Shown here: positions 6,290 through 41,100 of the stretch, in pieces
Position numbering within the stretch: position 1 is the stretch's first letter
Layout: each line of letters starts with the position of its first letter
Origin: Planktothrix sp. FACHB-1365
Lineage (GTDB): Bacteria > Cyanobacteriota > Cyanobacteriia > Cyanobacteriales > Microcoleaceae
Reading direction: 5' to 3'
NCBI RefSeq assembly: GCF_014697575.1
Contig: NZ_JACJSC010000008.1
Location: 93,075 to 157,074 of the forward strand
Length of the DNA stretch: 64,000 nucleotides
Notes under the pieces: generated by a model
The model's input: only the letters and a program-made list of their open reading frames with translations
What the model was told of the DNA's origin: nothing
Database searches by the model: none
Position numbers and translations under genes: made by a program

Positions 6290-6372
6290 AATTGTTGCTT
6301 TTTTTGAATTAGTTTAATGAAAACTTTAGGGCGCATTAGGAGTTTTTATAATGCACCCTAGCTAGAATTTTT

Positions 6373-6951: not shown

Positions 6952-6957
6952 CCAAAA

Positions 6958-7704
6958 CTAACTAGCTGATGGAAAAGATTCAACATCGGCTTCTGCTAAC
7001 AAGGTGATTTTTTGAGGCTCTAAATTTAAGCGTTGAATGCGAAGATTTACCCCTTTCAAGTTAAAATTATCTAAATTTAAGAGTTCGCTAGATTCATCAA
7101 TTAACGCCTGAGTTAATTCAGGAGAAACATTTCCTCCTTGAGAATATTGAATATCCTTGAGTTGAATCGTTTTGCGATCTGAACTGACCTCCGGTAAAGC
7201 TGTAAATGCAATTTTTGAGGATTCTCCCTTGGGGTGTGAAATCAGATAAGCTTGGAGAAAAAATCGACCATCTCCAGGGAGTTTGAATTCAACCGCTTGA
7301 GTATCAATAATGTTCTGATTTCCCTCAACTGCAATTTCTAAACCTTGCAGTTTTTTGAGAATATAATCAGAATTAAAAGCCCGATTAATATCGGCTTCTG
7401 TTAACACAACTTCAGCCGTTGCTTGGGTCGGATGTTTAAGTTCAATTTGTCCGAAAGCAACACTCAGGGGATTAATAGAAATTTCAGAAGTTTTCATTTC
7501 CATTTTTTCCATTCTCAAGTCGCTTTTCATCACCATTCCTGTTCCTGAAATTGTGGCGGAGTCAACTTGACCCTGAACTAACTTAATCGGATCAGTATTA
7601 ACATTGACATCCAGTTCTTCAACTTCATCTAATTGACTAGCTAGAGTCATTTCTGCTAGTTTGCTTAAGGCTTGTTCTCCTAAATCATCGTGTTTCTGAC
7701 TCAC
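6958..7704 (-). CDS. Hypothetical protein, possibly DUF2993/LmeA-like
   Basis: 248-aa soluble protein. The N-terminal region with ALSKLAEMTLASQLDEVEELDVNVNTDPIKLVQGQVDSATISGTG resembles the conserved start of DUF2993 proteins. This is a recollection, not verified. Confidence 0.35.
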   Translation of the reverse strand: MSQKHDDLGEQALSKLAEMTLASQLDEVEELDVNVNTDPIKLVQGQVDSATISGTGMVMKSDLRMEKMEMKTSEISINPLSVAFGQIELKHPTQATAEVVLTEADINRAFNSDYILKKLQGLEIAVEGNQNIIDTQAVEFKLPGDGRFFLQAYLISHPKGESSKIAFTALPEVSSDRKTIQLKDIQYSQGGNVSPELTQALIDESSELLNLDNFNLKGVNLRIQRLNLEPQKITLLAEADVESFPSAS

Positions 7705-7915
7705 TCAAATTATCCTCAGTCTGGGTTGAGGATATTGTATGGAATTGGAGCCAACTGTTAATCTATATTTAGGTAGAGAACCGGATTAAGTTTATGCTTC
7801 CTGATGGAGAAATATCGAGATATTTTTCATAATCTATTCCTGAAGAAAGAGGAGAACAATATTGTTTTTGATAATAGTAGTTTTAGTAATGCTTATTTTT
7901 TGGGAGAATAAAAAA

Positions 7916-8245
7916 ATGCCTCATCAAAATCATAAATCTGGACTTGAAATTGTCCTACAATGTGCAGTTGAGTGTGAACACTGTGCCGATGAATGTATCG
8001 GAAATATGCCAGAATGCGCTCGTTTATGCCGAGATTGTTCTCAACTCTGTTGGGCAATTGCAGGGTTTATGAGTCGCGGTTCCCGCTTTATTGCGCCTCT
8101 GTGTCGGACTTGTTTAGAAATTTGTGAAGCTTGCGCTAAAGAATGTCAAAAACACAATAACACTCACTGTCAAAACTGTGCTAAAGCTTGCCAAAATGTG
8201 GCTGAAGAATACCGCAAAATTGCAATGGTGGGTGCTGCGATTTAA
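7916..8245 (+). CDS. Cys-rich four-helix-bundle protein (DUF326-like, copper-storage/ferredoxin-like Cys repeats)
   Basis: Repeated CxxxC / CxxC spacing (CAVECEHCADEC, CARLCRDCSQLC, CRTCLEICEACAKEC, CQNCAKACQN), about 18 Cys in 110 aa. The start was moved to the internal Met (MPHQNH); the listed ORF began 18 codons earlier in a hydrophobic, AT-rich stretch. Confidence 0.6.
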   Translation: MPHQNHKSGLEIVLQCAVECEHCADECIGNMPECARLCRDCSQLCWAIAGFMSRGSRFIAPLCRTCLEICEACAKECQKHNNTHCQNCAKACQNVAEEYRKIAMVGAAI

Positions 8246-8286
8246 GGTTGTCTTTTAATCATAATAACGAAATCTCTAGCTATTCT

Positions 8287-10125
8287 CTAACTCTGTTTCC
8301 AAATTTTAATGCTTCCATCTCCATGACTACTGGCGAAAGTATGACCATCGGGGGTAATAAAAGTAACGGAATAAATCGCGCCACCTTGAGGGTTTAAACT
8401 CTCGATTAATTCTCCGGTGTGTAAATTCCAGATATTAATCGTTTGATCAGAGCTACCACTGGCTATTCTATTACCATCAGGACTAATTGCAACGGTATAA
8501 ACGCAATTTTTATGGTGATTTAACGTGCGAATCAGTTGACCTTTTTGCAGATTCCAAATAAACAGTTTACCATCATCGCTACTCGTGACAATAAATTGAT
8601 TATCGGGACTAATGGCTAAAGATCGGATATAAAATCGTTGAACTAAAGTTCGGCAAATTTTCATATTTCTCAAGTCCCAAATCATCACTTTTCTATCCCT
8701 TCCGCCACTAACAATAAAATCCCAATTAGAAGTCATATCGACACAATCAACAGCCCCAGAATGTTTATAAAGGGTTCTGAGGTTTTCTCCGGTGGCGACT
8801 TTCCATAACTGCACGGTATAATCCCAACAGCCACTAATTAAGTTTTCGCCATCGGGAGTAAATTTTAAACTGGTAATATAATGAGAATGAACTTTAATAG
8901 TTTTGATTAATGCTCCGGTTTGTAAATTCCAAAGTTTTATAGTATTATCACAACTCCCACTGGCTATTATAGAAGAATTGGGACTAATAGCAACGGCATA
9001 AATATGATCGTGATGTCCAGTAAAGGTGTGTAACAATTCTCCGGTTTGAGGATTTAAAACTTTAACACTTTTATCTTTACTTCCGGTGACTAAAATTTGA
9101 CCGTTGGTGCTGATAGTACAGCAAAAAATATTAGCGGAATGGAGTTTTAGAGTTTGGATACAATTCCATTTTTCGACGGTTGAGAGAGGTTCATTAATTT
9201 TTTGAACATCTCGAATCATCAAATTAATTTCTTGAACTGCATTAATATTCCCTTGTTTAGAATATAAATCGGAAGCATCTAATAAATTATCAATAGCTGC
9301 CTGTTTTTGACCTATTTTAAAGTAAGCTATTCCGCGATAACGATAAGCATCTGCATAAGTAGGTTGTAGTTGTAATGCTTTCGTATAATTTTTAATGGCG
9401 GTTTGATAATCTCCCTGTTGTTCAGCACAATTTAACCCAGATTCTAGGTAAAAATCGGGATTATTGGTTAAGCCTTTTAAGAAATTCCTTAGACCGTCGC
9501 CATAATGTAAGTCATTAATCTGCAATTTAACAATACTGTGATTTTGATAATATTCTAAAGGGATTTCTTTTTGTTCAATGCGTTTCTGAAGTAAACGAGC
9601 GGGAAGAAACCCAGCAATAATAGCAGAATATTCGGATTTAAACTCATCAAATTTAACAATAGTCTGAGAATTAGAATAAATTAAGATACAAACAATAGCT
9701 TGATTTTTAGTAATTTCTTCCCAACTTACCCACCATTGCGCCATTGTTGGAGAACTATAGCGAGTTTTCACTTGAATTCCAATCGAATAATCCGTACTAA
9801 TACGGAGATCAATCAGACCATCGCCAGTTTCTGGGATAATTTCATAGTTAATATTACCGACCAAATCTCCTAAATATTTCTTAACGATTTCTTCTCCCAG
9901 TTTTCCCATCATCGTATTTCTGAAAACCACTTGCGGGTCAACTTTCCGATATTTTCTAACCATATCCCAAGCGTGTTGACGAATGGGGTTTAAGTCCTGA
10001 CCCGAAAGGGTTTTAATCTCTCCATAAATTCCCGGTCTTTCATAACAGAGTAAACTATTTAATCCATTTTTGAGACGATGAATAAACTCGGCTTGTTTGT
10101 CTTTGAGATAATCATTTAGGTACAT
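8287..10125 (-). CDS. WD40-repeat protein with TPR region and an N-terminal ~230-aa domain of unknown function (possible PD-(D/E)xK-like)
   Basis: The C-terminal ~320 aa hold at least 7 WD repeats (GHHDHIYAVAISPNSSIIASGSCDNTIKLWNL..., repeated WD dipeptides). The middle has TPR-like YRYRGIAYFKIGQKQAAIDNL. The N-terminus has GDGLIDLRISTDYSIGIQVKTR, a D...D...QVK pattern like a degenerate nuclease core. Confidence 0.8.
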   Translation of the reverse strand: MYLNDYLKDKQAEFIHRLKNGLNSLLCYERPGIYGEIKTLSGQDLNPIRQHAWDMVRKYRKVDPQVVFRNTMMGKLGEEIVKKYLGDLVGNINYEIIPETGDGLIDLRISTDYSIGIQVKTRYSSPTMAQWWVSWEEITKNQAIVCILIYSNSQTIVKFDEFKSEYSAIIAGFLPARLLQKRIEQKEIPLEYYQNHSIVKLQINDLHYGDGLRNFLKGLTNNPDFYLESGLNCAEQQGDYQTAIKNYTKALQLQPTYADAYRYRGIAYFKIGQKQAAIDNLLDASDLYSKQGNINAVQEINLMIRDVQKINEPLSTVEKWNCIQTLKLHSANIFCCTISTNGQILVTGSKDKSVKVLNPQTGELLHTFTGHHDHIYAVAISPNSSIIASGSCDNTIKLWNLQTGALIKTIKVHSHYITSLKFTPDGENLISGCWDYTVQLWKVATGENLRTLYKHSGAVDCVDMTSNWDFIVSGGRDRKVMIWDLRNMKICRTLVQRFYIRSLAISPDNQFIVTSSDDGKLFIWNLQKGQLIRTLNHHKNCVYTVAISPDGNRIASGSSDQTINIWNLHTGELIESLNPQGGAIYSVTFITPDGHTFASSHGDGSIKIWKQS

Positions 10126-10218
10126 AGGTCTTGTGATTCCCTCTGAATTGGTGCAATCCCTGGTTTTATTTTATAGTGATAGGGAGGATAAAGTGATAAT
10201 AAATATAATAGCCACACC

Positions 10219-10854
10219 CTACAAAGTTTTGATCCAGGTTCTAAATTGTTTCATAGTGGCATTTCGTCCTGATGTTTGAATTTGTTGTAAATATTGAGGA
10301 ATAATATCGGTTAAGGGTAAATTGGGGAAGGTGGGACTGTATTGCGTTTCTTGATAGTCTCCATTTTGCAAAATATAAATTTTTAAGATCCTGTTTTCAA
10401 ACCGCCAGAGTTCAGGAACCCCTAACGCAGCATAAATCTGAGGATGGGTGCGGGAAGTAATATCAATTTCTAAGGCTAAATCTGGAGGGGGATCAACGGT
10501 TAAATCTAATCGTTTTTTAGTTCTGACTAACGCTTCATGTTGAATATAAAAACAGTTATCGGGTTCTATTCCTTGCTGCATGAGTTGATTTTTGAAAGTC
10601 GTAGAACCCAAAGGAAAAAATTCGATATCGAGTTCTTCTAGTAACGCTTTAATTAAATCACTCACTAATTCTTTACTAGATTCGTGTTCAGGTAAGGGAG
10701 TCCTAATTTCTAAGGTTTCATTTGCATAAGCAATTCGGGATGAACGATGTTCGCCTAATTCTTCTAATATGGTTTCAAATTCTTGCCAAGTAATATGATT
10801 CAAGAACACCGTTTGTCCGGGGGGAACTGTGATCCGATTCAGTGCTAACAACAT
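10219..10854 (-). CDS. Uma2 family endonuclease (DUF820, restriction-endonuclease-like fold)
   Basis: The ~210-aa size and HITWQEFETILEELGEHRSSRIAYANETLEIRTPLPEHE...LALEIDITS...ELWRFEN match the family signature recalled for cyanobacterial Uma2 proteins. Confidence 0.7.
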   Translation of the reverse strand: MLLALNRITVPPGQTVFLNHITWQEFETILEELGEHRSSRIAYANETLEIRTPLPEHESSKELVSDLIKALLEELDIEFFPLGSTTFKNQLMQQGIEPDNCFYIQHEALVRTKKRLDLTVDPPPDLALEIDITSRTHPQIYAALGVPELWRFENRILKIYILQNGDYQETQYSPTFPNLPLTDIIPQYLQQIQTSGRNATMKQFRTWIKTL

Positions 10855-11047
10855 TGTTAAACCTTCTGTAACAATCAGGATAAATTAAGTTAAGCCTAGT
10901 TTAAATTGTAGAATAAATTCCGCCTTTCCTGCCTAAGCGACTTGATGATCCGCAATGGGAATTCCATAAATGCCCCTTTTATGGCAATCTATTAGTTAAT
11001 AGGAGACACCATTCTGATCGCTGATTGACAGAAATCTATTATTAACT

Positions 11048-23725: not shown

Positions 23726-24280
23726 AGAGGTAAGCTAAAGCTAATACTCATCTATTCTGAAGGGATGACTGTTTCCCCTCATCTAACTTCAGCATGATCT
23801 GTTTGTGAATTCGGTTTGTAAATTAAGCGATAAAACTCATCCATTGAAGAAGTCTCATCATTGATTACAACCGAAATTAACAAAATCTCTACCTTAAGTT
23901 AGAAAATGAATTGATCAGAAATCGGTAAAGTATTGATTACTTCTCTATGAAGTTAAGCTTGGGAATTGAAATTTTCTGGATTCATATTGCTAAATATCCC
24001 TTAACTCCTTTTTGGATTATTTAATGGGATTTTTAAGTAAAAAATGTCCTCTTTTGAGGGTTGAGATTGCCATCTTTATCGATAAAGTTGGTGATGAATT
24101 GTAGCGTTTCGTTTCAACGCTGAAACACAATTTCTCCAAAGTTGGGTGTTGCTAGTGCAGTCGGGTTTGATTTTTTTTCTATCCCTTTCTCTGATTCATG
24201 AATGGTTTTTTTAATATTAACCCGGATGCACTGGCTCATCTTTAGCAACTTGGATTCGCTCTGATGGAGTCAGTAAATAC

Positions 24281-26512
24281 ATGGCAGCGAAATTCCCAAA
24301 ATTTGATCAAGGTCTTGCTCAAGACCCAACCACTCGCCGAATTTGGTACGGGATTGCCACGGCCCATGATTTTGAAAGCCATGATGGCATGAACGAGGAA
24401 AATCTCTATCAAAAGATTTTTGCCTCTCATTTTGGTCATTTGGCGATTATTTTTTTATGGACATCCGGCAACCTGTTCCATGTCGCTTGGCAAGGAAATT
24501 TTGAACAGTGGATTCGAGATCCCCTGCACATTCGTCCCATTGCCCATGCCATCTGGGACCCCCAATTTGGCAAACCGGCAGTGGAAGCCTTCTCCCAAGC
24601 CGGAGCTATAAACCCCGTTAATATTGCCTATTCGGGCGTTTATCATTGGTGGTATACCATTGGGATGAGAACCAACGCCGAGCTTTATCAAGGCGCTGTT
24701 TTCCTCCTGCTTTTGGCGGCATTGTTTCTATTTGCGGGCTGGTTACACCTTCAACCCAAATATCGTCCGAGTTTGTCTTGGTTCAAAAATGCGGAGTCCC
24801 GCCTTAACCACCACTTAGCGGGTTTATTTGGGGTCAGTTGTCTAGCCTGGACAGGCCATTTAGTTCATGTTGCCATTCCTGAATCCCGTGGCCAGCACGT
24901 CGGATGGGATAACTTCTTGACCACGTTACCCCATCCGGCCGGACTCAAACCCTTCTTTACTGCAAATTGGGGGGTTTATGCCCAAAATCCTGATACGGCG
25001 CAGCACGTTTTTGGCTCATCGGACGGGGCAGGAACGGCGATTTTAACGTTTTTGGGTGGGTTTCATCCCCAAACTGAATCGTTATGGCTGACGGATATTG
25101 CTCATCACCATTTAGCGATCGCGGTGATCTTTATTATTGCGGGTCATATGTACCGAACCAACTTCGGCATTGGCCACAGTATTAAAGAGATGTTGAACTC
25201 GAAAGATCCGTTGTTTGGGGTTCCCACTGAAGGACAGTTCAACTTACCCCACCAAGGTTTGTATGATACCTATAACAACTCCCTGCATTTTCAGTTAGGA
25301 ATTCACCTGGCTGCGTTGGGGGTGGTGACATCGCTGGTGGCGCAGCATATGTATTCCATGCCACCCTATGCGTTTATCGCCAGGGATTATACAACCCAAT
25401 CGGCACTGTATACCCATCATCAATATATTGCTGGGTTCCTCATGGTCGGAGCCTTTGCCCATGCGGCTATCTTCTGGGTTCGAGACTATGACCCCGACCA
25501 AAACAAAGGCAACGTTTTAGATCGGGTTTTGAATCACAAAGAAGCGATTATTTCCCATTTAAGTTGGGTGTCTCTATTTTTGGGATTCCATACCCTGGGT
25601 ATATACGTTCACAATGATGTCGTCGTTGCCTTTGGGACACCGGAAAAGCAAATTTTGATTGAACCTGTATTTGCTCAGTTCATTCAAGCGGCTCATGGTA
25701 AAGCCCTTTATGCAATGGATGTGTTACTGGCGAACCCAGACAGTATTGCCCATACTGCTTGGCCAAATCATGGGAATGTTTGGCTACCCGGTTGGTTAGA
25801 TGCGATTAATTCCGGTAAGAATTCATTGTTTTTAACCATTGGCCCTGGGGACTTCTTAGTTCACCATGCGATCGCTTTGGGTCTACACACCACCACCTTA
25901 ATTTGTGTCAAAGGTGCGTTAGATGCCCGTGGCACTAAACTGATGCCTGATAAAAAAGACTTCGGTTTTACCTTCCCTTGTGATGGCCCTGGACGGGGGG
26001 GCACTTGTCAAACGTCGGCTTGGGAGCAATCGTTCTTCCTAGCAACTTTCTGGATGTTGAATACCCTCGGTTGGATCACGTTCTATTTCCACTGGAAACA
26101 TTTAGGGGTGTGGCAAGGAAACGTTGCTCAATTTAATGAAAGCTCAACCTATATTATGGGTTGGTTTCGGGATTACCTCTGGCTGTATTCGGCTCAGGTG
26201 ATCAATGGTTACAACCCCTACGGAACCAGTAACCTCTCGGTTTGGGCCTGGATGTTTCTGTTCGGACATTTGGTTTGGGCCACTGGGTTTATGTTCTTGA
26301 TCTCTTGGCGAGGCTATTGGCAAGAACTGATTGAAACGTTAGTTTGGGCCCATGAACGCACCCCTCTGGCGAACCTTGTGATCTGGAAAGACAAACCGGT
26401 TTCGCTGTCAATTGTTCAAGGATGGTTAACGGGTTTAGTTCACTTTACGGTGGGCTATATCCTCACCTATGCCGCGTTCCTACTGGCTTCAACGGCTGGA
26501 AAATTTGGCTGA
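24281..26512 (+). CDS. psaB: Photosystem I P700 chlorophyll a apoprotein A2 (PsaB), stand-alone and somewhat divergent copy
   Basis: The N-terminus [36 protein letters not shown] matches PsaB ([36 protein letters not shown]). The FX loop [19 protein letters not shown] is present. It is 743 aa and ends ...GKFG. Confidence 0.93.
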
Positions 26513-26540
26513 TCATCCCTGAAAGGGTGAATGATTAACT

Positions 26541-26573
26541 ATAGGGGTGACGACAGTTGCCCCTATGTTTTTG
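26541..26573 (+). terminator. Intrinsic terminator of psaB: ATAGGGG-(12 nt)-CCCCTAT then GTTTTTG
   Basis: 7-bp GC-rich stem plus T-tract about 30 nt after the psaB stop, read directly. Confidence 0.55.
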
Positions 26574-26633
26574 TGCTTCAGTATTAGAAATCAGGTTAGC
26601 TATTATAGGGATGAACCTTGTTGCAACACCACA

Positions 26634-26888
26634 ATGAGCATCAATCTCACCTCTGACCAAGAACAATTTATTCAAACTCAACTAGAATCTGGAAAATATC
26701 AAACCCCTGAACAAGTCATCTCAACTGCGTTGCGCCTACTGGATGAATGGCAAAGGGCTGAGGCAGAATGGGCTAAAGATGTGGCAGCTAAAATCGATGC
26801 GGCTGTATCCACCTCTGAAGAAAATCCTCCCCTTGATGGTGAAACTTTTATCAATGAGATTTTAGAACGGTTTAAGCCAACCCATTAG
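26634..26888 (+). CDS. ParD/CopG-like ribbon-helix-helix antitoxin (type II TA antitoxin), orphan
   Basis: MSINLTSDQEQFIQTQLESGKYQTPEQVISTALRLLDEW matches the ParD-family N-terminus pattern (..L.pe.e.Fi..qv.sGrY.sasEVvReaLRLLee). The start was moved downstream of the psaB terminator. No toxin ORF follows. Confidence 0.55.
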   Translation: MSINLTSDQEQFIQTQLESGKYQTPEQVISTALRLLDEWQRAEAEWAKDVAAKIDAAVSTSEENPPLDGETFINEILERFKPTH

Positions 26889-27109: not shown

Positions 27110-30100
27110 ATGACCGTTTTTTATGTTTGTCTCACAGAGCAGTGTAGAATTGATGCTACTAAGTATGGTGTCATTCAAGATATTGAAAAGTTTGCTGAAA
27201 AGCTAAAAAAAGACCAAAGTACGAGAGGACTTGATCGATTTCCAAAACCCTATTGGAAGAAATCAATGGCAAGAGGTCGTATTGTTATTGAAGAGTATCC
27301 TCTGAGTGAAGACAAGATCATCCTCGGCCTGTCCCGATTTTTCATGCGAGGGTCTGATGATCGAGAATATGAGCCTTCTTATAAAGACACAGAATCTTTT
27401 TGGAATAAAAACAAGGTTTCTGGTTCTGAAATAGAAGCATTTCTTGACACCATAAAAAAAACACCAATTCCTCCCAAAAAACAGTTATCAGAAATTGAGA
27501 GTCAGTATCTTCAATCGATATCAAGTTCTTACTTGACTGATGAACCTGTATTCTTAGAAAGTTATGACTGGGTTGATCGTATATCTCAGGATTATATCAA
27601 ACATCATATTTCACGCTATTCCGATTTAAGCAAGAATATTGCATTTGAAGAATTTGCGCCTAATCAAGATTTGATCAAGCACGCAACAAATCCTAACATT
27701 CAAATTCTATATCGGTATTTTCCAGAACATAAGAGAATATTATTAATATCTCCCCTAAACAAAAATAAACAAGACGATGAAAAAGAGTTACGAGAGAAGT
27801 ATAAAGATATTTTAGTTAATTCACAAGTCGAACTTGACACAATTATCCGTTGGAGTCGGCGTGCCTACCCTTCGATCATTGTCTGTGATGAGGAAGTGTG
27901 GATACAGGTTCAGAACACTGCTGAGGCTAATTTAGCATTATCGCCTGAAGAAGAGAAAATTCTTGAAAAAATATCAAATCCTGCTCATGGAGAACCAAGA
28001 TATCCATTATTTATCAATGGACGACCAGGTAGTGCTAAATCAACTATCCTTCAGTATTTATTTAGTGAGCATTTAACTCACTATAAAGACGAGGCTGGCT
28101 CATTAGTCAATCCACCATTGTACTTGACTTACAGCACTCCACTTTTGGAGAAAGCTCGTTCATCTGTAAAAGATATTTTACTCTGTGGTGCAAAACATCT
28201 TGAGCATGGATCTAATTCCAAAGAGAATCCAAAATTGAAGCAGATATTAGATCAGAGTTTTCGCACTTTTCGTGACTTTTTGCGTGAGAAACTTCCTCAT
28301 GAAGTGAAGGCTGATTTTGTGGATGCTAAGTATATAAACTTTGAGCAGTTCCGCAAGGAGTGGGATAAGGCACGAGAAAAACTACCTAAATCTGAAGAGC
28401 AACGTAATATTAGTTCAGGGCTTGCATGGCACGCCATAAGAACCTTTATTAAGGGTATGCAAAACGAATTGGGTGCTGAAATCGATCCTGAATTTTACGA
28501 ATGTGAATTACCTCGCAATTTAAAATCCATCTCAGATAACACCTTTCAATTAATTTACGAGAAAATTTGGCAACGTTGGTATAAACCACTTTGCGGAAAA
28601 GAAGGCTTTTGGGATGACCAAGACTTAGCTCATGCAGTTTTAGAGTATTCAGCCAACGAATTATCACAATACCCGGCAGTGTTCTGTGATGAAGCTCAAG
28701 ATTTCACCAGCGTTGAACTTGAGTTGATTCAACGTTTATCTCTTTACTCTGATCGCCAAATACCTAGCCATCTTGCTAAGGATGTTCCGTTTGCCTTTGC
28801 AGGCGATCCTTTTCAAACTTTAAACCCCACAGGGTTCAACTGGACTGCAACACAGGCGAGTTTTCATAAAAACATTGTTCAGAAGTTCGACGATAGCAGT
28901 GGTTCTGCCAAATTAGAGTTTAATTATCAAGAACTATCCTTCAACTACCGTTCATCAGAACAAATTGTCAAGTTAGCTAATTTAATTCAACTTCTACGAG
29001 GGAAACTGCTAGATATTAAAGGCTTGCGTCCACAGCAAAGTTGGACAAGACAAGAAACAAGTAGTCCTGTATGGTTCCGAGCAGAAGATGCAGCTTGTAA
29101 AGACAAAATTCGAGAACAAAAGGAACTGATTATCATTATTCCTTGTGAAGAGAACGGTGAAGTGGAGTATATTAAAGGTGATCCTTTTCTGTCTAGCTTT
29201 GCGTTAGGGAATGATGAGAAGGTTTCAAGAAACATTTTAAGCCCAGCAAGAGCTAAAGGATTGGAGTATAAGCGTGTATTGCTATACAAGTTTGGTGAAG
29301 AAGCAAGAAAAAAAGTGCCAGAATTTCTGAAATATCTTAAAAATATTAATGATCCAAAACTTGAGCCTCCTGAGATTGAAGAGTGTTTGGCATGGGAGTA
29401 TTTTCTTAACCAGTTTTATGTTGCAGTAAGTCGCGCTCGCAAACGTTTGTTTATCGTAGATTCTGATCAGGCACTAGAAGAGTTCTGGAAATTATTTACA
29501 GATATCCAAAAACAACGTGAACTACTTGACTTATATCAAAGTATCAATAGTAATGAACAGTGGAGCCTTGAAAACATAGGTGGCATGATACAAGGTGACG
29601 AAGACAGCTGGTCAGCTGATCGTGATGATCCGTATAAGTTAGCTCAGAATTATGAGGCTCAAGGTCGTAGCTCAAGAGATCCCGATCTGCTAGATCTTGC
29701 TAGCTGGAACTATCATCTTGCTAACTGTCCTGACAAAGCCAAGCTTTGTCAAGCAGCCGCCTACGAATTTAGGGAACATTTTGCAAATGCAGGTAATTTA
29801 TTCAAAGAGTTAAAGCAAGCCAATGATGCTTGTCGGTGCTATTGGGCTGGAAAAGATGTAGATGCAATTATCGATTTAGTTAAGCAACTTCCTGAAATTG
29901 ATACAAACCCGCGCGTTACAGCAGCAAGAGTCATCAAACGAGATCAAAATACTAGGCAAGACATTGACAATCTGCTGACTGCTTTACAAAAGGTTGAACC
30001 TATAAGATCAGATGATTCCACTAAAATCGAAAGTAGCGCATGGCAGTGGTTTTTTAAGGAACTGATTATTAAAGTCGATCAGGCAATTACATCGAGTGGC

Positions 30101-31573
30101 GAAGCTCATCTTTTAGGCTGGAAACCGTTAATTGAAGGTATAGTCAAAACTTTAAGTCACCTCAATTTTTCCTCCAAAGATTATCCAGATATCGGCAAGT
30201 TGTACTTCTTGGTTGGAGAATTTCAAGAAGCTGTCACACATTGGGATAAATGTTCTGCCATTCAGAAACAGTCTCAGAAGTCACCAACGTGGCTTCTTCG
30301 ATCACGGGCTAAAATAGAAGGTTATCCAGACAATCTCCAATATTATCATCAACTGAAAGATGACAATGCTGTAATAGAGGCTTGGCGAAGTGCTGGGAGT
30401 CCTATTCCTAGAGAAACACCCGTCGTCAACAGAATTCTCGAATCTGCTGTAAAAATTGGTAATGTTGAGGCTATCCGATCCCTACTTCCTGTCTGCAATG
30501 ACATTGCAAAAGTAAGGGACTTGGTTAGGGATAGCAAGAATGAGGTACTCCGTGAACTGCGTGGTAGTATTTCTGTTGCTATTAACCAATGCTTGGAAGC
30601 CGATAGCGAATGGGAAGAAATTGTCAACTTTACCCAGACTTACGAGATTAGTCATTTGCTGATTGGAAAATCACGAAATATTCCATATAGTTCGCTCAAT
30701 GAGGAGTTGAAAAAAGCGAAAATTGAGTGGGATCAATCAATTGCTATTGCCGCTGCTGTGCGCGTGCTTGCCAGATCCGAGCGACTTGTTAAGGAGAATT
30801 TTAAGTCTCAACAAATCATTTCAGAATTCCTGAAGCAACATCTCATCATTGACAATAATAGTAGCCCAGAACAACACAAAATCATGCGGGAAGTTCATCA
30901 AATATTGAGTGTAGATGAGGTTGGGTCTGCTTTTGAAAGGGCATTCAAACTCACTTTTGCCTTTGAATATTACGAACAATGGTACAAGAGCAATAGTCCA
31001 GCCCAAGAACTTCACCTGATTTCTCCATCATCTAAGGATATCAATCTTGCCAAGCGACGCTGGATGAAATGCAAATATATCCTCGCTGAGACAGAACAAA
31101 ACGCACGAAGCCCTCAACTGAAAGAGGAAGCTCAAAAGATGGCTGATCAATTAAACGTGTCTATTGATGATGAGCCAAAATACTTAGAACTTCCTGACAT
31201 CACTGAGTTGAATATTCCAAGTTCTTCAGAAGCAATAACACCAAAAGCTTTGATTCTAACAAAAGATATGAACGAAGAACTAACCATTAAAGGCTTAAAT
31301 TTCATCGTGAAGACAGACCATATCCAGAAGCAGCGTATTTCTCTTAAACGAGTCGATAATGGGGATAATGTTTTGTTCAGTCTAAACAAGGTAAGCAGTG
31401 ATGATGTATCAGTCAAAGAGTTGGCAGAAACTCCTACACTAAAAGTTTGGGTAATTGAGGAATGGGATATTAACATTGAAAGTCAAACTAATACAGGTGA
31501 TTCTATCATTTCGTTAAAAACGAGTGAAGGCAACCCGATTATTCGTATTGAATTACCGAAAATATCAAACTGA
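27110..31573 (+). CDS. 1487-aa multidomain protein: ~270-aa N-terminal domain of unknown function, SF1 (UvrD/PcrA-like) helicase core, ~680-aa helical (TPR-like) C-terminal region
   Basis: Q-motif-like LALSPEEEKIL. Walker A LFINGRPGSAKSTIL. Motif II VFCDEAQDFTSVE. Motif VI-like YVAVSRARKRLFIVD. The codon usage (AGA/AGG, AAG, CTT/CTA, GGA) differs from neighbouring native genes (TTA, AAA, CGT/CGA, GGG/GGT). Confidence 0.8.
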   Translation: MTVFYVCLTEQCRIDATKYGVIQDIEKFAEKLKKDQSTRGLDRFPKPYWKKSMARGRIVIEEYPLSEDKIILGLSRFFMRGSDDREYEPSYKDTESFWNKNKVSGSEIEAFLDTIKKTPIPPKKQLSEIESQYLQSISSSYLTDEPVFLESYDWVDRISQDYIKHHISRYSDLSKNIAFEEFAPNQDLIKHATNPNIQILYRYFPEHKRILLISPLNKNKQDDEKELREKYKDILVNSQVELDTIIRWSRRAYPSIIVCDEEVWIQVQNTAEANLALSPEEEKILEKISNPAHGEPRYPLFINGRPGSAKSTILQYLFSEHLTHYKDEAGSLVNPPLYLTYSTPLLEKARSSVKDILLCGAKHLEHGSNSKENPKLKQILDQSFRTFRDFLREKLPHEVKADFVDAKYINFEQFRKEWDKAREKLPKSEEQRNISSGLAWHAIRTFIKGMQNELGAEIDPEFYECELPRNLKSISDNTFQLIYEKIWQRWYKPLCGKEGFWDDQDLAHAVLEYSANELSQYPAVFCDEAQDFTSVELELIQRLSLYSDRQIPSHLAKDVPFAFAGDPFQTLNPTGFNWTATQASFHKNIVQKFDDSSGSAKLEFNYQELSFNYRSSEQIVKLANLIQLLRGKLLDIKGLRPQQSWTRQETSSPVWFRAEDAACKDKIREQKELIIIIPCEENGEVEYIKGDPFLSSFALGNDEKVSRNILSPARAKGLEYKRVLLYKFGEEARKKVPEFLKYLKNINDPKLEPPEIEECLAWEYFLNQFYVAVSRARKRLFIVDSDQALEEFWKLFTDIQKQRELLDLYQSINSNEQWSLENIGGMIQGDEDSWSADRDDPYKLAQNYEAQGRSSRDPDLLDLASWNYHLANCPDKAKLCQAAAYEFREHFANAGNLFKELKQANDACRCYWAGKDVDAIIDLVKQLPEIDTNPRVTAARVIKRDQNTRQDIDNLLTALQKVEPIRSDDSTKIESSAWQWFFKELIIKVDQAITSSGEAHLLGWKPLIEGIVKTLSHLNFSSKDYPDIGKLYFLVGEFQEAVTHWDKCSAIQKQSQKSPTWLLRSRAKIEGYPDNLQYYHQLKDDNAVIEAWRSAGSPIPRETPVVNRILESAVKIGNVEAIRSLLPVCNDIAKVRDLVRDSKNEVLRELRGSISVAINQCLEADSEWEEIVNFTQTYEISHLLIGKSRNIPYSSLNEELKKAKIEWDQSIAIAAAVRVLARSERLVKENFKSQQIISEFLKQHLIIDNNSSPEQHKIMREVHQILSVDEVGSAFERAFKLTFAFEYYEQWYKSNSPAQELHLISPSSKDINLAKRRWMKCKYILAETEQNARSPQLKEEAQKMADQLNVSIDDEPKYLELPDITELNIPSSSEAITPKALILTKDMNEELTIKGLNFIVKTDHIQKQRISLKRVDNGDNVLFSLNKVSSDDVSVKELAETPTLKVWVIEEWDINIESQTNTGDSIISLKTSEGNPIIRIELPKISN

Positions 31574-31861: not shown

Positions 31862-32173
31862 ATGGATAGTCCTGAAACCGCCAGTGGAGTTATTCGCCTC
31901 AAACCCCAACAATACATCCATATTCTCGATACCAATACCGGGGTCACTCGCTTAGAAGTTGGCCCCCAAACCATTACGCTTCGGGATCATGATCGCCTTG
32001 CCTTACGTCCAGAGTCCATGATCGTTGTCCCCCCTCGCTATTATTGCATCATTACTAATCCGGTTTTGCGAGATGAAGACGGTCAACCCTTGGCGGATCA
32101 ACATGGTCAAATTCGGCTCCGCTATCAAGCTAATTCCATGACGACATCAATTGTATGTCCTAACACTTCATAA
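31862..32173 (+). pseudogene. Truncated major-vault-protein (MVP)-like gene: only the N-terminal ~100 codons (first vault repeat) remain
   Basis: MDSPETASGVIRLKPQQYIHILDTNTGVTRLEVGPQTITLRDHDRLALRPESMIVVPPRYYCIITNPVLRDEDGQPLADQHGQIRLRYQ aligns with vertebrate MVP [86 protein letters not shown] (~45% identity, no gaps). Homology stops at codon ~100 (nt ~32128), exactly at the stop codon of the convergent HD-GYP gene. Confidence 0.6.
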
Positions 32174-33768
32174 ACTTTTCGTTGTTTAAAGAGTTCTAAA
32201 CAATCAGCATTAATTTTATTGTTGGCGGCTTCTTGTTGTAAGATTTTTAAAGCTGTTACAGTAGGTAATCCGCTTTTATAAGGGCGATCGCCGGCTGTTA
32301 GGGCATCATAAATATCTGCAATAGTAATAATTTGAGCTTGGATGGGAATTTCGGGGAATTTTAATCCCAAAGGATATCCGGTTCCATCCAGTTTTTCATG
32401 ATGTCGATAAGCAATTGTGGGAATATTTTTTAAGTCATTTGTCCAGGGAATTTGCTTTAAGAATTCATAAGTATAACTAACATGGGATTCAATCTTTTCT
32501 CGTTCTTCTGGGGTTAAATTTCCTCGTTCTACTAACAGTTGATTAATTTCTTCTGAAGTTAATAAAGGTTTTATTTGTCCATCTAAATCTCGATAGGTCA
32601 TTTGAGCCAGTTCCCGCAGATGGTTTAAGGGATCTTCTGCTAAAACTCTGGGTTCATTTGCTTCTAACAAAACGGCCCAATATTGGCTTAATTTAGCAAT
32701 TGATTCTGATAATTTTGTATCTAATTCTGGGATAGATTTACAAAATTGACATTCCGTTTCTGGGGATAATTTATGGGCGGAATGCTGCAACAAATGTTCG
32801 TATTTAGTTTGGGTACATTCTAATTCTAAGGTGCGTTGTGCTAAGGCAAATCGATGACGGATAACCTCTAATTGCAGCGAATAAAGTTTTTTCGGTTTGG
32901 TTAAAATTGCTTCAGGAACACCCACTTTCCCAAAATCATGTAATAATGCAGCATAGCGAAGTTCTTGAAGTTGACGTTCACTAAAACAAAAAGGTGCTAA
33001 GGAACCTGAATTAACCGTATTAACTTCTTGACTTAAACGAACTGCTAATTCTGCCACTCGTTCTGAGTGACCAAAGGTACAAGGATCACGAGCTTCAATC
33101 ACTTGTACAGATGTGCGAACAAACCCCTCAAATAGATGTTCAATACTTTCTTGTAAGTGATTTCGTTCAATGGAAATAGCGGCTTGGGAGGCGAGCGATC
33201 GCAAAATTCGCTCTTCCCAAATCGAATAAGGTTGGGTCATTTCTACTGCATTTTCAGCCGTAATTGCTACATCCGGGTTGATTTTGCGGTTAATGAGTTG
33301 TAGAACCCCAATCACTTCTCCTTTGCGATTTTGCATCGGAACCACTAATACCGAACGAGTCCGATAACTAATATTTTCATCAAAACTACGATCCAGTTGA
33401 TAGGGTTCATGTTCTGGTAAATTATAGGCATCGGGAATATTTAATGAAACGGATTTTAACGCCACATATCCAGCTAAACTTCGAGGAGTTAAAGGAATGG
33501 CAAATTCTTTAAAGGATAAATTGGGTAAAGACGCATTTTGGGCAACTTTAAACAGCAATTTGGGGTTGTTATCACTGTTATCGATGAGATAGACACTTCC
33601 CGCATCACTCCAAGTAATTTCCCGACTTTTTGTTAATATTAAATTCAGCAGGGTACTTAACTCTTGAGTTCCAGATAGAGCCGTACCAATATCAAGCAGT
33701 TTCTCAATGAGTTCGGCTTGCTCATCGAAGTTATGGAACAATTCGGGTTTCTCAAAAATTATTTTCAT
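32125..33768 (-). CDS. GAF-domain / HD-GYP-domain protein (probable cyclic-di-GMP phosphodiesterase)
   Basis: HD-GYP signature LLHDFGKVGVPEAIL ... HHEKLDGTGYPLGL. The N-terminal ~200 aa are GAF-like (LSGTQELSTLLNLIL...AGSVYLID...VPMQNRKGEVIGVLQLINR). Confidence 0.8.
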   Translation of the reverse strand: MKIIFEKPELFHNFDEQAELIEKLLDIGTALSGTQELSTLLNLILTKSREITWSDAGSVYLIDNSDNNPKLLFKVAQNASLPNLSFKEFAIPLTPRSLAGYVALKSVSLNIPDAYNLPEHEPYQLDRSFDENISYRTRSVLVVPMQNRKGEVIGVLQLINRKINPDVAITAENAVEMTQPYSIWEERILRSLASQAAISIERNHLQESIEHLFEGFVRTSVQVIEARDPCTFGHSERVAELAVRLSQEVNTVNSGSLAPFCFSERQLQELRYAALLHDFGKVGVPEAILTKPKKLYSLQLEVIRHRFALAQRTLELECTQTKYEHLLQHSAHKLSPETECQFCKSIPELDTKLSESIAKLSQYWAVLLEANEPRVLAEDPLNHLRELAQMTYRDLDGQIKPLLTSEEINQLLVERGNLTPEEREKIESHVSYTYEFLKQIPWTNDLKNIPTIAYRHHEKLDGTGYPLGLKFPEIPIQAQIITIADIYDALTAGDRPYKSGLPTVTALKILQQEAANNKINADCLELFKQRKVYEVLGHTIDVVMELA

Positions 33769-35198: not shown

Positions 35199-38100
35199 TT
35201 AGGACATTTTAGATAAACAGCGTTCTAAATAAATTTGAGCCACTTTATCCATCGGAAGATAATGTAGACATTCTTGGAATAATCTAGCAGCCTCGGAGTA
35301 ACGTTCTAAATAATATTGCATTAATCCATATTCAAAGGTGGTTTTTGTCCGAAGTTTTCCGGCTTTTATTTCCGGCAAATCTGAATCAAATACTTCATAT
35401 ACCGTTACCGCATCGGATTTTCCTTTGACTTTGACTCGATCAATAATCCGAATTGCATACTCGTTGGCATTTCCTAAAGCCATAAAAGTAGGATGGGTAA
35501 TTAATAAAGACACCCCATAATTTTTTGTTAAATTTTCAATGCGAGAAGCTACATTAACAGAATCACTAATCACTGTACTATCCAGTCGATTTTTACCCCC
35601 CACAATTCCTAACATTAATCCTCCGGTATTAATACCAATTCCAATTTTAATCGGGGGACGTTCGGGGCGTTGTCGGGTTTCATTATACTCATTCAGTCGG
35701 CTAATCATTGAAATCCCAGCCCGAACTGCATCATCAGCAGACCCGCCAAATAATGCCATAATTTCATCCCCAATATATTTATCAATAAAACCATAATTTT
35801 CGACGATGGCAGGTTCCATGCGACTTAAAAACGCATTAATAAATTTAAAATTATCTTCAGGAGTCATCCCTTCAGAAAGGCTGGTAAAGTCCCGAATATC
35901 AGCAAATAAAATCGACATTTCCTTTTGAACTGCCGCCCCTAACTGAACTTCTACAATACTTTCATAACCTAAAAAAGATAAAAATTCATGGGGAACGAAT
36001 CGCGCCGCCGCATCCGTTAGTTCAAATTCCGAATCTAACGCTTCATCTAAATGATGATTCAATTCTGAAAGTTTTGCCATAAATTGTAAGCGTTCTTCTT
36101 CGGCAGTTTTTCGTTCCGTAATATCAACGACAAACCCTTCATAATACAGTAATTCATTCTGATCATTAAAGACAGCCCGTGCATTTTCTGAAATCCAAAT
36201 AATGCTACCATCTTTGCGGTAGGCTTTAAATTCAAATCCTGAAACTTCCCCTTGTTGATCAATTAATTGTATAAAATCTAATCGGCGTTGAGAATCTACA
36301 TAAATTTGTTCTTCAACATTCATCACCGTTGACATTAAATCCCAAGGAGAATCATAACCTAAAATCTTCGCTAAGGCAGGATTTGCACTGATATAATGCC
36401 CCTCCCTGGTGGTTTGAAATAAGCCTTCACTGGCATTTTCAAATATACTGCGATATTTTTCTTCGGCTTGTCTTAAAGCCAGTTCTGTTTGCTGACGTTT
36501 TGTGATATCTTGAAACGCCAGAATCGCATACATTAAATCCCCCTCTTCATCATAAGTCGGTGTTACCCAATTTTCAAGCAATATCGTTTGTTCTCCTTGA
36601 TTCACTTCTAAAAGAAACGTGGTATCGGGTGTAGGATTATATAAATCACAATAAGGTGTTAATTGATCAAATTGATGCTGTTGACACCAATTAAGATAAG
36701 CTTGATAAATATTAGATAAAGCTTCACAAAATAATCCAGGAGTGACTTTAGTTTTGAGCAATTGTTGAGCTTTTTGATTGGTAAAATAGGGTTTACCCGT
36801 AGGGTCTAAAACAGCAACGCCAACCGGAATTCCTTCTAAGAATTGCGTCATCTGTTGTTCATTATTACGAACTTGAGAATAAAGTTTAGCATTATCAATG
36901 GAAATCGCGGCTTGAGAAAACAGAATTTTGAGGACTTCTAATCGTTCTGGAGTAAACACTGCGGTTGCTAAGTTATTTTCAAGGTATAGAATTCCAATCA
37001 ATTTTCCTCGATTTTGAATGGGAGTCATGAGGATTGATTTGGATTGATGTTCTATTAAATAAGGATCATTACGATACCGAGATTCTTGACGAGCATCTGC
37101 TAAAATTAGAAACTCTTGGGTTTGAATCACGGTATTCAGAATTAACAAAGGTAAAACATTACTCTGTTCTACAGAAACAGATTTTAATAAGGATTCAATC
37201 TCAATAGACCCTCCTTTCGTCGGGTTTAAACTGGCTATTGCTTCTATCGCTAATTTTCCCGATTTAGATAAAAGAATACAACATTTTTCGGCTCCTGCGT
37301 TTTCAATTACCACTTGAATTAATCGTTTCAAAAGTTGTTCTAAATCGATTTCTTGAGATAAAGCTTGAGAAGCTTTTGTTACCGTTGCTAAATCGAGAGC
37401 AGCCGAACCTCCATGACTACTAGAAATAATGGTTTCTGTCGTATTATTACTGATTGTTGTGCCTGTTGTGGGAATAACAAGTTGTGATAAAATAGAATGT
37501 AAAAGTTGAGGATAACGAGATTCTAAATCTTTGACTTTTGCCAAAGCACCCCAATGAGCATAACTATAATAGGCATCAATTAAATAAACCCTGGCTATTT
37601 TTTCTTTCCCCCAATCTAAATAAAATTTAGCCGCTAATTCCTCTGCTAACGCTTCTTCTTGAATAAATTGATAGGTTTTAGCCAAAGTAATCGCTTGTTC
37701 ATAGGCTTCAATGGCTTTAATATAATCTCCTTGAATGTGGTTAAATTCGGCCTCCACCAAATAAAATAGATGGGAAAAGTTCATCGGAGTCCCCTGAGAA
37801 AAAGCTTTTAATTTTTCTTGATTTTGAGTTACTTTTTCTAAAATTTTAACTTGGTCTTCTGGCGATAACTCCGGGTAGATTGCTAAATTAATTAAAGATT
37901 GATAACAATAAAAAAACGGTTGTAAAACAAAATAGGTGTCTTGGTTTAAATAGTATTCAGCTTGCTGAGACCATTCCTTCGCCTGCTGTAATTGATCTAA
38001 TCTATAATTCAGAACCATGAAATTTAAACTAAGTTCAAAAGAAATTTCCTGGGTCGAATATCCAATTTCAGTCGTTCCTATTGTGCCGTTTTCAGCATGA

Positions 38101-41100
38101 CCTGTAAAATTTAATGAGGTGTCTCCCTCTAATTTTCCATTTAAAATTTGCAAGCTTTGATAATAGGTGGTCAAAATTAATAGTTCTGACGGAGGTTTAA
38201 AATTTTGTAATTGATTTAAACACTGACTCAATTCAAACTCCAATTCAGAGACATCGTTTCCCGTGAAATAAGCGATTTCAAGATAAGCTTGAGCGAGACA
38301 ATAAGCTTCATCAATTTTCCCAGCTTCTTGAGCTTGTAAATAGCAAGTTTTGAGGGGAGATAAAACCTGCTTTAAGGAAGTTTTCCAAGGTTTAATAAAC
38401 CGATAAACCAGTTGTTTAACTTTGATAATTAATGCGGAATTTGCTTGTTTTTGCGATAATTCTAAAGCTAATTCTCCCATTTGATTCCCGAACTCAATTT
38501 CCCCTTGGGTACAAAGAATAAATCCAAAGACAGCATAGACAAAACTTGATAACGTTGTATTTCCTTGTTGATACGATAAATGAATCAGTTTTAAAACCCA
38601 AAATGGGAATTGTTCGGGAATTACCCGATAAGCGGAAGGAAAAGCAGAGGTTAAAATTGTAAATAAATTTACTAAATTAGTATCGGATAATTCCGGTAAA
38701 TCTAATAACGCTAAGGGTGTTCTTCCCCCTAAATCATTCATAAAATTATGCTTAAATTTTTGCCAACTTTCTTGACTAAAATTATCACCCCAGGTAAACC
38801 CTAATTGTTGACAAACAGCTAACGCAAGATTGACCGCATTGTCATCTTGATTTTGAATTCTATAAGCTTGAATCATTAACTCATAAATTCTGACTTTATG
38901 TCCTAATGTTTGAGCATTTTCTAAAACAATATTTCCCCACTTCTGTAAATTTTCCCAATCTTGACTAAGATAAGCAATTTCTGCTGCTTCTGTGTATAAT
39001 TCTAAGGTTAATTGATAGTCTCGTTCCCAACTCTCCGTTGTCAATAGCCCCAGACCAATTGCTAAATGTCCAATGGCTGTCGGATAGGCGGTGGCAATTT
39101 TGGCTTTTCGTCCGGCTATTAAATTAAATAAGGCTAATTGATCTCGTTCTTTTTGATCCTGAATTAAGCCGACTCCTAAATTAAGTTGATTAATGATATT
39201 TAATAAAACTTCGGTTGAAATTTTATTTAAAATCATCTTAATGGATTGATTAAAATATTGTTTTTTAATTTGATTTAAAAGGGAATTTCCGATTTTCAAA
39301 TGGGTCGCTTGTCGTTGATGAGTGGGAATTAAAAGATAAGCAGCTTGTTGAACCCGGTCATGAATAAATTGGTATTTATCAATACCGGGTTGTAACAACG
39401 GTAAGGTTTCATTCGGATCAAAGTGTGAAGGGTAAGATACTTCAGTTTCTAAGGAATAAAAGGGATAAATATCTCTAGCAATAACAATAAATTGAGCCTG
39501 TAAAGCAATTTCTAAAGCTTTTAATGTTTCTAAATAAGTTTTTTGAGTTGCGGTGGCTAAATCTACTGCATTAAATTGATTTCCTAAACAAGCCGCAATT
39601 TTTAAAATTTCTTGGGTGTTTGGCGGTAATTGTTGTAATTGATGAAGAATTAAATCTAAAATATTAGAGTTAATAGAACGGGTTTTAATTTGAGTTAAAT
39701 TACATTGCCAACCTCCGAATAAATTTCGATTTTTCAACGAAGATTGAGGCGGATTAAACCAAATTAGTTTTTCTGTATATAAGGATTGGAGAAATTGACG
39801 AACAAAAAAAGGATTTCCTTGAGTTTTTTGACTGACTAATTCTGCCAAAGGTTTAGCCCGGTCTAAGGAACAAACTAATGTTTCTGCTATTAGTTGATTA
39901 ATGGCAGAATCTTCTAAAGCATTTAAAGGAATTCGATGTAAGGGAATTCCTGAATTTTCTAAGGTTTCTAAGATTTTAATTAAAGGATGTGTTTCCCCGA
40001 TCTCGTCATCCCGATACGCTAAAATTAGCACTAAGGTTGGAGGTGTAGAATAAATATTTTGTTCAGGACTCATCAAAACCTGAATTAATCGTAAGGATTC
40101 AACATCAGCCCATTGTAAATCATCTAAAAAAATGACTAAGGGATGATGAGGTTGGGCAAAAGTTTGAATGAGCTTTTGAATTAAGCGATTAAACTGATTC
40201 AGGTCAATTTTGACCTCTAATTCAGTCAGGGAAGACTGTTGATTTAATAAAACTTTCAGTTCAGGAATAACAGCCATTAAAACCGGGGCTTGATCTCCGA
40301 GTCCATTTAAAAGTTTCTTTTTCCAAGCTTCTACCTGTTCCAAAGGTTCAGTTAACACTTGTTGAATTAATTGTTTAATTCCTTGTACCCACCCCCAGAA
40401 AGGCGTATTCGTTTTAAATTGATCAAATTTTCCGGTGATAAAATAACTGTGAATAAAGGTGACGCAAGGAGTTACGGGCAGAACTCCTGTTCGACAATAT
40501 GCCACGGTTTGATAGAATTCTTGAACGAGGGCGGACTTGCCTATTCCTGATTGACCTGTAATTACAATAATTTCTGATTGAGCCTTGTTTAAAATCGAGG
40601 TTAAACGCTTAATTTCTGGCTCTCGCCCATAAAATTTATTCGGAATAATAAATCGATCATTTAAGTCAATCGTCGCCAAAGGAAACGGAGGAATGTCCCC
40701 CAGTTTTTCCCATTGTTCTAAACAATTTTCTAAATCATAGCGCAGTCCTAATGGTGTTTGATAACGCTCGTCTGGATTTTTAGCCATCAATTTTAAGATA
40801 ATATTATTGAGCATTATCGGTAAGGTTGGTTTAATTTTGCTTAAAGGCTGAGGAAGCAGGGCTAAGTGAGCATGGATTAATTCTAGGGGATCGGAGGATG
40901 GAAACGGAAGTTTTCGAGTTAATAATTGATAAAGGGTTACTCCTAAAGAGTACAAATCTGTGCGATAATCAATACCCCAATGGGTTCGTCCGGTTTGTTC
41001 GGGAGACATATAAGCTAAAGTTCCTTCTAATCCTTGAGAATTAACAACTTCTTGATGGGAATGGTTGAGTTGAATAGAAATACTGAAGTCAATTAGTTGA

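Follow-up and report, generated by a model that had tools for sequence, protein, structure and literature searches.

An alternative form of the photosystem I (PSI) core subunit PsaB was described from Nostoc punctiforme as 'PsaB2' (Ekman 2011; Magnuson 2011), with changes that cluster near phylloquinone and FX, and according to section 10 of Cardona 2015 (PMC4582080) it is distinct from the PsaB2 associated with far-red light. It was subsequently renamed PsaB3, with a Gln insertion by FX as its hallmark (Gisriel et al. 2023, PMC10694217 section 4.2), and is found in Nostocales and also among sequences of Leptolyngbyales and Oscillatoriales (PMC10694217). In N. punctiforme, Nostoc 7120, Chlorogloeopsis fritschii and Leptolyngbya ohadii the variant gene stands alone and coexists with a canonical psaA-psaB operon (PMC4582080, PMC10694217). 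For N. punctiforme, C. fritschii and L. ohadii there are reports that the variant is expressed and built into PSI (PMC10694217, PMC6424891); L. ohadii puts both PsaB forms into PSI constitutively (PMC10694217). The C. fritschii PsaB3 transcript is up about 2.5-fold in far-red light, its function in PSI being still open (PMC6424891), and what the alternative PsaB does in general is a question that has stood since 2011 (PMC6424891, PMC10694217). Here we analyse a psaB gene located within 64,000 nucleotides of the Planktothrix sp. FACHB-1365 genome (contig NZ_JACJSC010000008.1, positions 93,075 to 157,074; this whole stretch is hereafter called the window). We consider it very probable that this gene is a functional, monocistronic psaB encoding the described alternative PSI core subunit, that is, PsaB2 in the sense of Magnuson 2011 and PsaB3 in the sense of Gisriel 2023.

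A full-length PsaB with a variant FX loop

The protein encoded by the window psaB is identical to WP_190518924.1 of Planktothrix sp. FACHB-1365, as found by exact-sequence look-up. In a profile search of this open reading frame (ORF), TIGR01336, the PsaB model, matched residues 2-743 with 1522.7 bits (cut-off 921.65), whereas the PsaA model gave 657.5 bits, below the PsaA cut-off. The product is a full-length PsaB at the equivalog level (TIGR01336/PF00223), and it aligns collinearly over its entire length with every solved PsaB chain. Motifs of the cofactor ligands are all kept, namely C567 and C576 (FX), H663 within LFGHLVW (P700), M671 (A0), W676 and W680; we take these residues to belong to FX, P700, A0 and phylloquinone on the basis of what is established for structure 1JB0.

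It is around FX that the protein departs from the canonical form. The FX loop had originally been predicted to read CQTSAWEQ in place of CDISAWDA; this holds, with the refinement that canonical PsaBs read CDISAWD[AS] and that the change also includes an insertion of one residue. Two loop types are present among the best database matches together with 80 genomic loci (designated below by L-numbers): a canonical C-D-I-S-A-W-D-[AS]-F, and a variant C-Q-[TS]-S-[AS]-W-[EQ]-Q-[ST]-F that is one residue longer. A character comparison of 33 variant and 68 canonical PsaB sequences found three characters that separate the two completely. D577Q (Asp575 of Thermosynechococcus elongatus) and the Q583 insertion after the second FX cysteine are each present in 33/33 variant and 0/68 canonical sequences, and position 715 (T. 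elongatus 712) is Trp in all 33 variants and Arg in all 68 canonical sequences as well as in PsaA. Five further changes are near-diagnostic (L542C, Y563F, A564T, I578T and D582E), each occurring in at least 82% of variants, and the window PsaB has every one of them.

Viewed from the canonical side, the window PsaB differs at 18 of the 493 columns that are near-invariant in the 68 canonical PsaBs; five of these deviations are family hallmarks, the others being lineage-specific or present in some variants only. Among these others are R701I and A708S in the window protein, which correspond to R698I and A705S in canonical numbering and lie close to the phylloquinone-binding Leu706. The N-terminal KFDQGL that was originally noted in place of KFSQDL (S9D/D11G) is there as described, but only the four Planktothrix copies have it, and it is not a trait of the alternative PsaB family. 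Judged by its residues, the window protein carries the marks of an alternative PsaB: the Gln insertion, and substitutions that cluster around FX and phylloquinone.

The altered loop also bears a resemblance to the other core subunit. PsaA has Gln at the site equivalent to PsaB Asp575, and if the PsaA loop reads CQVSAWDHVF, as we presume, then Q583 gives the variant PsaB loop the length of that of PsaA. On account of both the Gln at the Asp575 site and this length, the variant loop is more PsaA-like at FX.

Further variation of the loop was seen within the pool of sequences. A subgroup of Nostocales (Anabaena/Trichormus-type; L095, P0039 and P0046) has the loop GGSCQ[TS]SSWQQTF, in which the Thr preceding the second FX cysteine has become Ser and position 582 is Gln rather than Glu. 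A contig labelled 'Actinomycetota bacterium MAG69' (L031) carries a stand-alone variant-like psaB at 6001-8226 with the altered FX motif CDGPGRSGTCQISAWQQ, including an unusual Gly-to-Ser change; its Actinomycetota label is almost certainly a binning error.

Relatives of the window PsaB

The 90% cluster of the window PsaB includes proteins of P. tepida PCC 9214 (where the orthologue is annotated 'apoprotein A2 2'), P. mougeotii, P. pseudagardhii, Desertifilum, Leptolyngbya sp. FACHB-711 and L. ohadii, the last being WP_088891388.1, the PsaB3 of that species. Proteins of two further Planktothrix species are 99.2-99.5% identical to the window PsaB, whose identity to Planktothrix PsaB1 is 88% and to the Nostoc and L. 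ohadii variants 87-88%. In a neighbour-joining (NJ) tree with 100 bootstraps, the four Planktothrix variants are monophyletic (100/100) with the Desertifilum variant as their sister, and in none of the replicates (0/100) are they grouped with Planktothrix PsaB1. Their placement is unchanged after deletion of the FX-loop and 698-722 regions, and therefore the signature alone is not its driver. On these comparisons, the window psaB is not a recent duplicate of Planktothrix psaB1. The proposal that it is an alternative paralogue of psaB2 type is thus well founded, by the Gln insertion, by membership in one 90% cluster with L. ohadii PsaB3 and by its position apart from Planktothrix PsaB1.

One locus in the same tree behaves differently. 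The psaB of Scytonema sp. PCC 10023 (L055, 6001-8214) is an operon copy with the variant FX loop, yet it clusters by NJ with Nostocales PsaB1 (Brasilonema, Scytonema). This suggests that gene conversion may have taken place between two psaB paralogues; a sliding-window identity profile, run as a check for a chimera or gene conversion, gave no clear signal.

Transcription unit and gene context

A tblastn search with a PsaA query found no psaA anywhere in the window, in agreement with the original prediction of a psaB without psaA upstream. The roughly 550 bp of non-coding sequence that had been claimed upstream of psaB is a spacer of 555 bp (Table 1), in which no ORF of at least 50 aa lies entirely; a 65-aa minus-strand ORF (24242..24439) starts within its last 39 bases. 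An Rfam scan found no match in the spacer, its sole match being a spurious tmRNA fragment within the psaB coding sequence, and a search of the 555 bp for NtcA (GTAN8TAC), HLR1/RpaB and CRP motifs found none. The spacer is near-identical in P. tepida and has only short blocks by the start codon in common with the metagenomic contig L010, so that footprinting is uninformative, the first being too alike and the second too divergent. At the other end of the gene, a strong intrinsic terminator had been predicted and is well supported: its stem spans 26540-26567, beginning 28 bases 3' of the psaB stop codon, and it folds with -25.1 kcal/mol (z = -3.3), an energy equalled in 0/200 shuffles. We infer that psaB is transcribed from a promoter of its own within the spacer and that transcription stops at this hairpin.

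Variant psaB genes are found in two kinds of context. They stand alone at eleven Nostocales loci and in Oculatella FACHB-28, L. ohadii, Desertifilum, P. tepida and several metagenomic contigs, and they lie directly 3' of psaA in Symplocastrum torsivum CPER-KK1 and related contigs, a Coleofasciculaceae metagenome-assembled genome (MAG), Allocoleopsis and Scytonema sp. PCC 10023. In Symplocastrum the operon-type variant adjoins psaL-psaI and kai genes (kaiABC in L002). It is important to note that the window gene is indeed stand-alone, as predicted, but that the variant is not defined by standing alone, because some lineages carry it as their operon copy. At least two genomes among the loci listed have both psaB types: Nostoc sp. 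CCY 9925, with a variant alone (L045) and a canonical copy behind psaA (L089), and Fischerella muscicola PCC 73103, with the two copies at L092 and L086. In all P. agardhii, P. rubescens and PCC 11201 genomes examined, psaA-psaB1 occupies one conserved locus, near genes for an N6/N4-methylase and a DICT-histidine kinase, with a 91-nt spacer between psaA and psaB1. At one locus, that of Scytonema sp. PMC 1070.18 (L048), two psaB genes follow psaA in tandem (6001-8223 and 8638-10860) with identical scores to the query; the pair stems from a tandem duplication or else from an artefact of the assembly.

Table 1. Coordinates of psaB and associated features in the window, and of operon-type variant loci used for comparison
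Feature	Position	Strand	Basis or remarks
psaB coding sequence (Gln-insertion variant), 743 aa + stop	24281..26512	+	TIGR01336 match, collinear with solved PsaB chains
FX-binding loop C567-Q583	25979..26029	+	translation; both FX cysteines, D577Q, I578T, D582E, inserted Q583
Codon for Trp715 (= T. elongatus PsaB Arg712)	26423..26425	+	translation; third universal hallmark of the variant
Spacer upstream of psaB, 555 bp, 35% GC	23726..24280	+	presumed promoter and 5' untranslated region
Intrinsic terminator: 12-bp GC-rich stem, 4-nt loop, then TTTTTGTGCT	26540..26577	+	folding
Small divergent ORF, ~98-104 aa	23411..23725	-	hydrophobic N-terminal segment, IPCxxCxFFTG...LKC...C motif
ParD-family antitoxin-like gene (PF03693, 27 bits)	26547-26888	+	probable start ATG near 26636; kept in P. 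tepida
Operon-type variant loci: L001-L004, L011-L013, L017, L019, L055			
L001	psaA 5555-7828, psaB variant 8001-10232		

A possible consequence for PSI

We hypothesize that the variant PsaB would pair with the product of a single psaA encoded elsewhere in the genome, forming a heterodimer and with it a second population of PSI. The residues altered in the variant suggest where such a PSI may differ. In canonical PSI, PsaB-Asp575 stands opposite PsaA-Gln588 and is named as a cause of the difference in midpoint potential (Em) between the phylloquinones A1A and A1B (PMC9671125). Mutant kinetics indicate that the effect of Asp575 on Em(A1) is about as large as that on Em(FX) (PMC9671125), and the residue is hydrogen-bonded into a water cluster around PsaB-Trp673 (PMC8575901). 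The idea of redox tuning goes back to Magnuson 2011 and to Rutherford 2012, both of which PMC4582080 summarises. In the variant, replacement of Asp575 by Gln, the added residue and replacement of Arg712 by Trp would entail a loss of titratable negative charge, and this loss, together with the longer loop, may raise, shift or equalise the potentials of FX and the phylloquinones and reduce the asymmetry of the A and B branches. That the potentials should shift or equalise is expected because Asp575 affects the Em of A1 and FX in canonical PSI.

As for when such a PSI would be made, published data suggest that, in the strains for which they exist, both PsaB forms are constitutively co-expressed. 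The original proposal of condition-specific expression of the window psaB (low O2, light quality or iron) is speculation.

Weighing the alternatives

Several observations weigh against the reading of the window gene as a functional, monocistronic psaB for the alternative subunit. No promoter above chance was found in the spacer, where 9 sigma-70-like sites were observed and 7.3 expected, and the match at 24061-24088 is itself at chance level. The psaA-psaB1 of FACHB-1365, P. tepida or P. pseudagardhii is not among the PsaB1, PsaA and flanking-gene cluster members listed. A single clade of all variants is not recovered by NJ (6-8% bootstrap); the PsaB backbone in this tree has poor resolution, with Nostocales PsaB1 falling among the variants. 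Descent as one family is supported by the shared rare characters and by the literature, not by the NJ tree. The redox consequence set out above would be carried over to the variant from computations and mutants of canonical PSI. Lastly, beyond Planktothrix, Desertifilum and L010, the closest variants are operon copies (Symplocastrum, Coleofasciculaceae), and therefore the variant is not necessarily accessory.

This last point invites another reading, which we regard as less likely: the variant may not be just an accessory, low-O2 or heterocyst-type subunit, and the Planktothrix gene may be a copy of what is elsewhere a housekeeping gene. In that case a PSI whose electrostatics around FX and the phylloquinones are PsaA-like and more symmetric could be the housekeeping form in fully oxic habitats, and the operon-encoded variant would possibly be the only psaB in soil-crust Coleofasciculaceae (Symplocastrum, Allocoleopsis). 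The Planktothrix gene would then have been gained horizontally or kept as an ancient paralogue, along with the divergent Cys-motif membrane protein, and the rationale of redox tuning for anaerobiosis would be undercut. A separate alternative, in which the window gene is the sole psaB of its genome, the operon having been split with psaA elsewhere and the Gln-insertion form acting as the housekeeping PsaB, seems to us improbable. It would be in keeping with the variants of about 90% identity that lie directly 3' of psaA in Symplocastrum torsivum, the Coleofasciculaceae MAG, Allocoleopsis and metagenomic contigs, and with the absence of a FACHB-1365 or P. tepida PsaB1 from the cluster members listed. 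However, all stand-alone variants with documented genomes coexist with a canonical operon (Nostoc CCY 9925, Fischerella PCC 73103; PMC4582080, PMC10694217), the other Planktothrix genomes examined keep psaA-psaB1 with its 91-nt spacer at a conserved locus, and the 'A2 2' label of the P. tepida orthologue points the same way. Because of this conservation of the Planktothrix operon, its presence in the documented stand-alone genomes and the P. tepida label, FACHB-1365 would be expected to have a single psaA beside a canonical psaB1 elsewhere in its genome.

Next to a variable island and what is left of a toxin-antitoxin system, the gene could in principle be a duplicate that is decaying or without function, or cargo transferred recently; we hold this to be very improbable. 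Directly downstream of psaB there is indeed an orphan ParD-like antitoxin gene, the synteny with P. tepida ends just past it, and GC content at third codon positions is 0.50 in the window psaB compared with 0.56 in Planktothrix psaB1. Yet the ORF of 743 codons is intact with all cofactor ligands kept, the protein is kept in four Planktothrix species, the locus is syntenic in P. tepida and the gene has a proper terminator; moreover, of the codons that differ between the window psaB and that of P. tepida, 80 do so synonymously and 4 non-synonymously, which indicates strong purifying selection. We give practically no weight to the idea that the gene encodes the far-red-light (FaRLiP) isoform of PsaB2 that binds chlorophyll f, despite its being an extra psaB copy and despite the name 'PsaB2' having been applied to both families in the literature. 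FaRLiP psaB2 adjoins psaA2 in a cluster of about 20 genes (PMC10694217), whereas here the 64 kb are without psaA and the neighbours of psaB are unrelated to photosynthesis (an AI-2E transporter, an OppC permease, a flavin monooxygenase and ParD); the two paralogues are, furthermore, products of separate duplications (PMC4582080 section 10).

Neighbourhood of psaB in Planktothrix

The gene that we favour as an alternative psaB sits in a block of 8.6 kb that is syntenic with P. tepida PCC 9214 (LR882970) at 95% nucleotide identity, with the shared order AI-2E transporter, OppC permease, flavin monooxygenase, small ORF (on the minus strand), psaB and the ParD-like gene. The small ORF, which the original prediction had correctly placed upstream on the minus strand, encodes 104 aa in the window and lies divergently 5' of the variant psaB in P. 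tepida as well (L096 5118-5426, 95% identity). It is also present in the same divergent position in Desertifilum (L107 5111-5374, 44%) and in a metagenomic contig (L010 122-409, 47%). No Pfam or NCBIfam family matched it, and phmmer found 615 representatives of 50% clusters at E<=1e-3; it represents a widespread family of small proteins that is undescribed. We considered the small ORF as a dedicated partner of psaB and dropped the idea, because it is absent beside variant psaB in Nostocales, Oculatella, L. ohadii and the operon-type loci, and because the family is far larger than the synteny. Its position next to psaB is probably just retained synteny.

Immediately downstream of psaB, no ParE-like toxin ORF is evident adjoining the ParD-like gene. 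The synteny with P. tepida stops directly after the latter, and the region 3' of it is a variable island (window 27110-31573 on the plus strand, compared with L096 8641-12769). In FACHB-1365 the island encodes a 1487-aa protein with weak UvrD/GajB-like helicase matches, whose place in P. tepida is taken by a 412-aa ORF together with an 872-aa protein that has domains of the eukaryote-type major vault protein (Vault, MVP_shoulder); in both genomes it ends at the same GAF-HD protein (window 32125-33768). Farther along, the window encodes several of the large multidomain proteins that are characteristic of filamentous cyanobacteria. On the minus strand are a 2122-aa protein that combines Ser/Thr kinase, AAA, GAF, PAS and adenylate/guanylate cyclase domains (35199-41567) and a 938-aa helicase-pentapeptide-repeat protein with 252 bits to the PADLOC 'Helicase' model (41719-44535). 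On the plus strand is a 2689-aa protein (52026-60095) that begins with a TPS secretion domain and has a CHAT protease domain at its C-terminus.

Comparison with known PsaB and PsaA subunits

The alternative PsaB family is already described, and the window gene is an ordinary member of it rather than a discovery. The name PsaB3 has reportedly also been used by Gan 2014 and by Ho & Bryant 2019. What is new is modest, namely the Planktothrix member itself, the three-character signature, the occurrence of the variant as an operon copy in some Oscillatoriales and Scytonema, and the conserved Cys-motif ORF upstream. Existing knowledge of PSI is unaffected by these findings. With the Planktothrix copy, the host range of the alternative PsaB extends to a non-heterocystous, bloom-related genus, which argues against a purely heterocyst-linked role; the definition of the family is sharpened to three invariant characters (Asp575 to Gln, the added Gln and Arg712 to Trp); and the variant is seen to be capable of existing either as a stand-alone gene or as the operon copy. 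Since the extra FX-loop residue is absent from all chains among the best 60 PDB matches, a structure or kinetics of any member of the variant family would be informative.

The closest described system is the PsaB2/PsaB3 of Nostoc, which shares with the window PsaB the Gln insertion, the replacements of Asp575 by Gln and of Arg712 by Trp, and the changes L540C and Y561F of canonical numbering, which are L542C and Y563F in the window protein; both it and L. ohadii PsaB3 are, like the window gene, encoded alone without psaA. The window case differs from Nostoc in that its host is a non-heterocystous member of Oscillatoriales, in a genus not discussed for this paralogue in the literature cited here, and in adding S9D/D11G, R701I and A708S to the protein and a conserved divergent small ORF upstream of the gene. 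Canonical PsaB1 (T. elongatus 1JB0 chain B, and that of P. agardhii and PCC 11201) is like the window PsaB in length, fold and cofactor ligands, but its gene lies 91 nt 3' of psaA, its loop is CDISAWD[AS]F without the insertion and it has Arg712, in all of which the window PsaB differs. PsaA has Gln in its FX loop (Gln588, PMC9671125) at the same site as the window PsaB, but keeps Arg at the equivalent of Trp715, and in other respects the window protein is a PsaB (1523 versus 658 bits). Finally, FaRLiP PsaB2 is likewise an extra psaB paralogue of some cyanobacteria, but one that arose by a separate duplication, has its gene beside psaA2 in the FaRLiP cluster and responds to far-red light with a more than 10^4-fold induction (PMC6424891, PMC10694217), a context absent from the Planktothrix locus.

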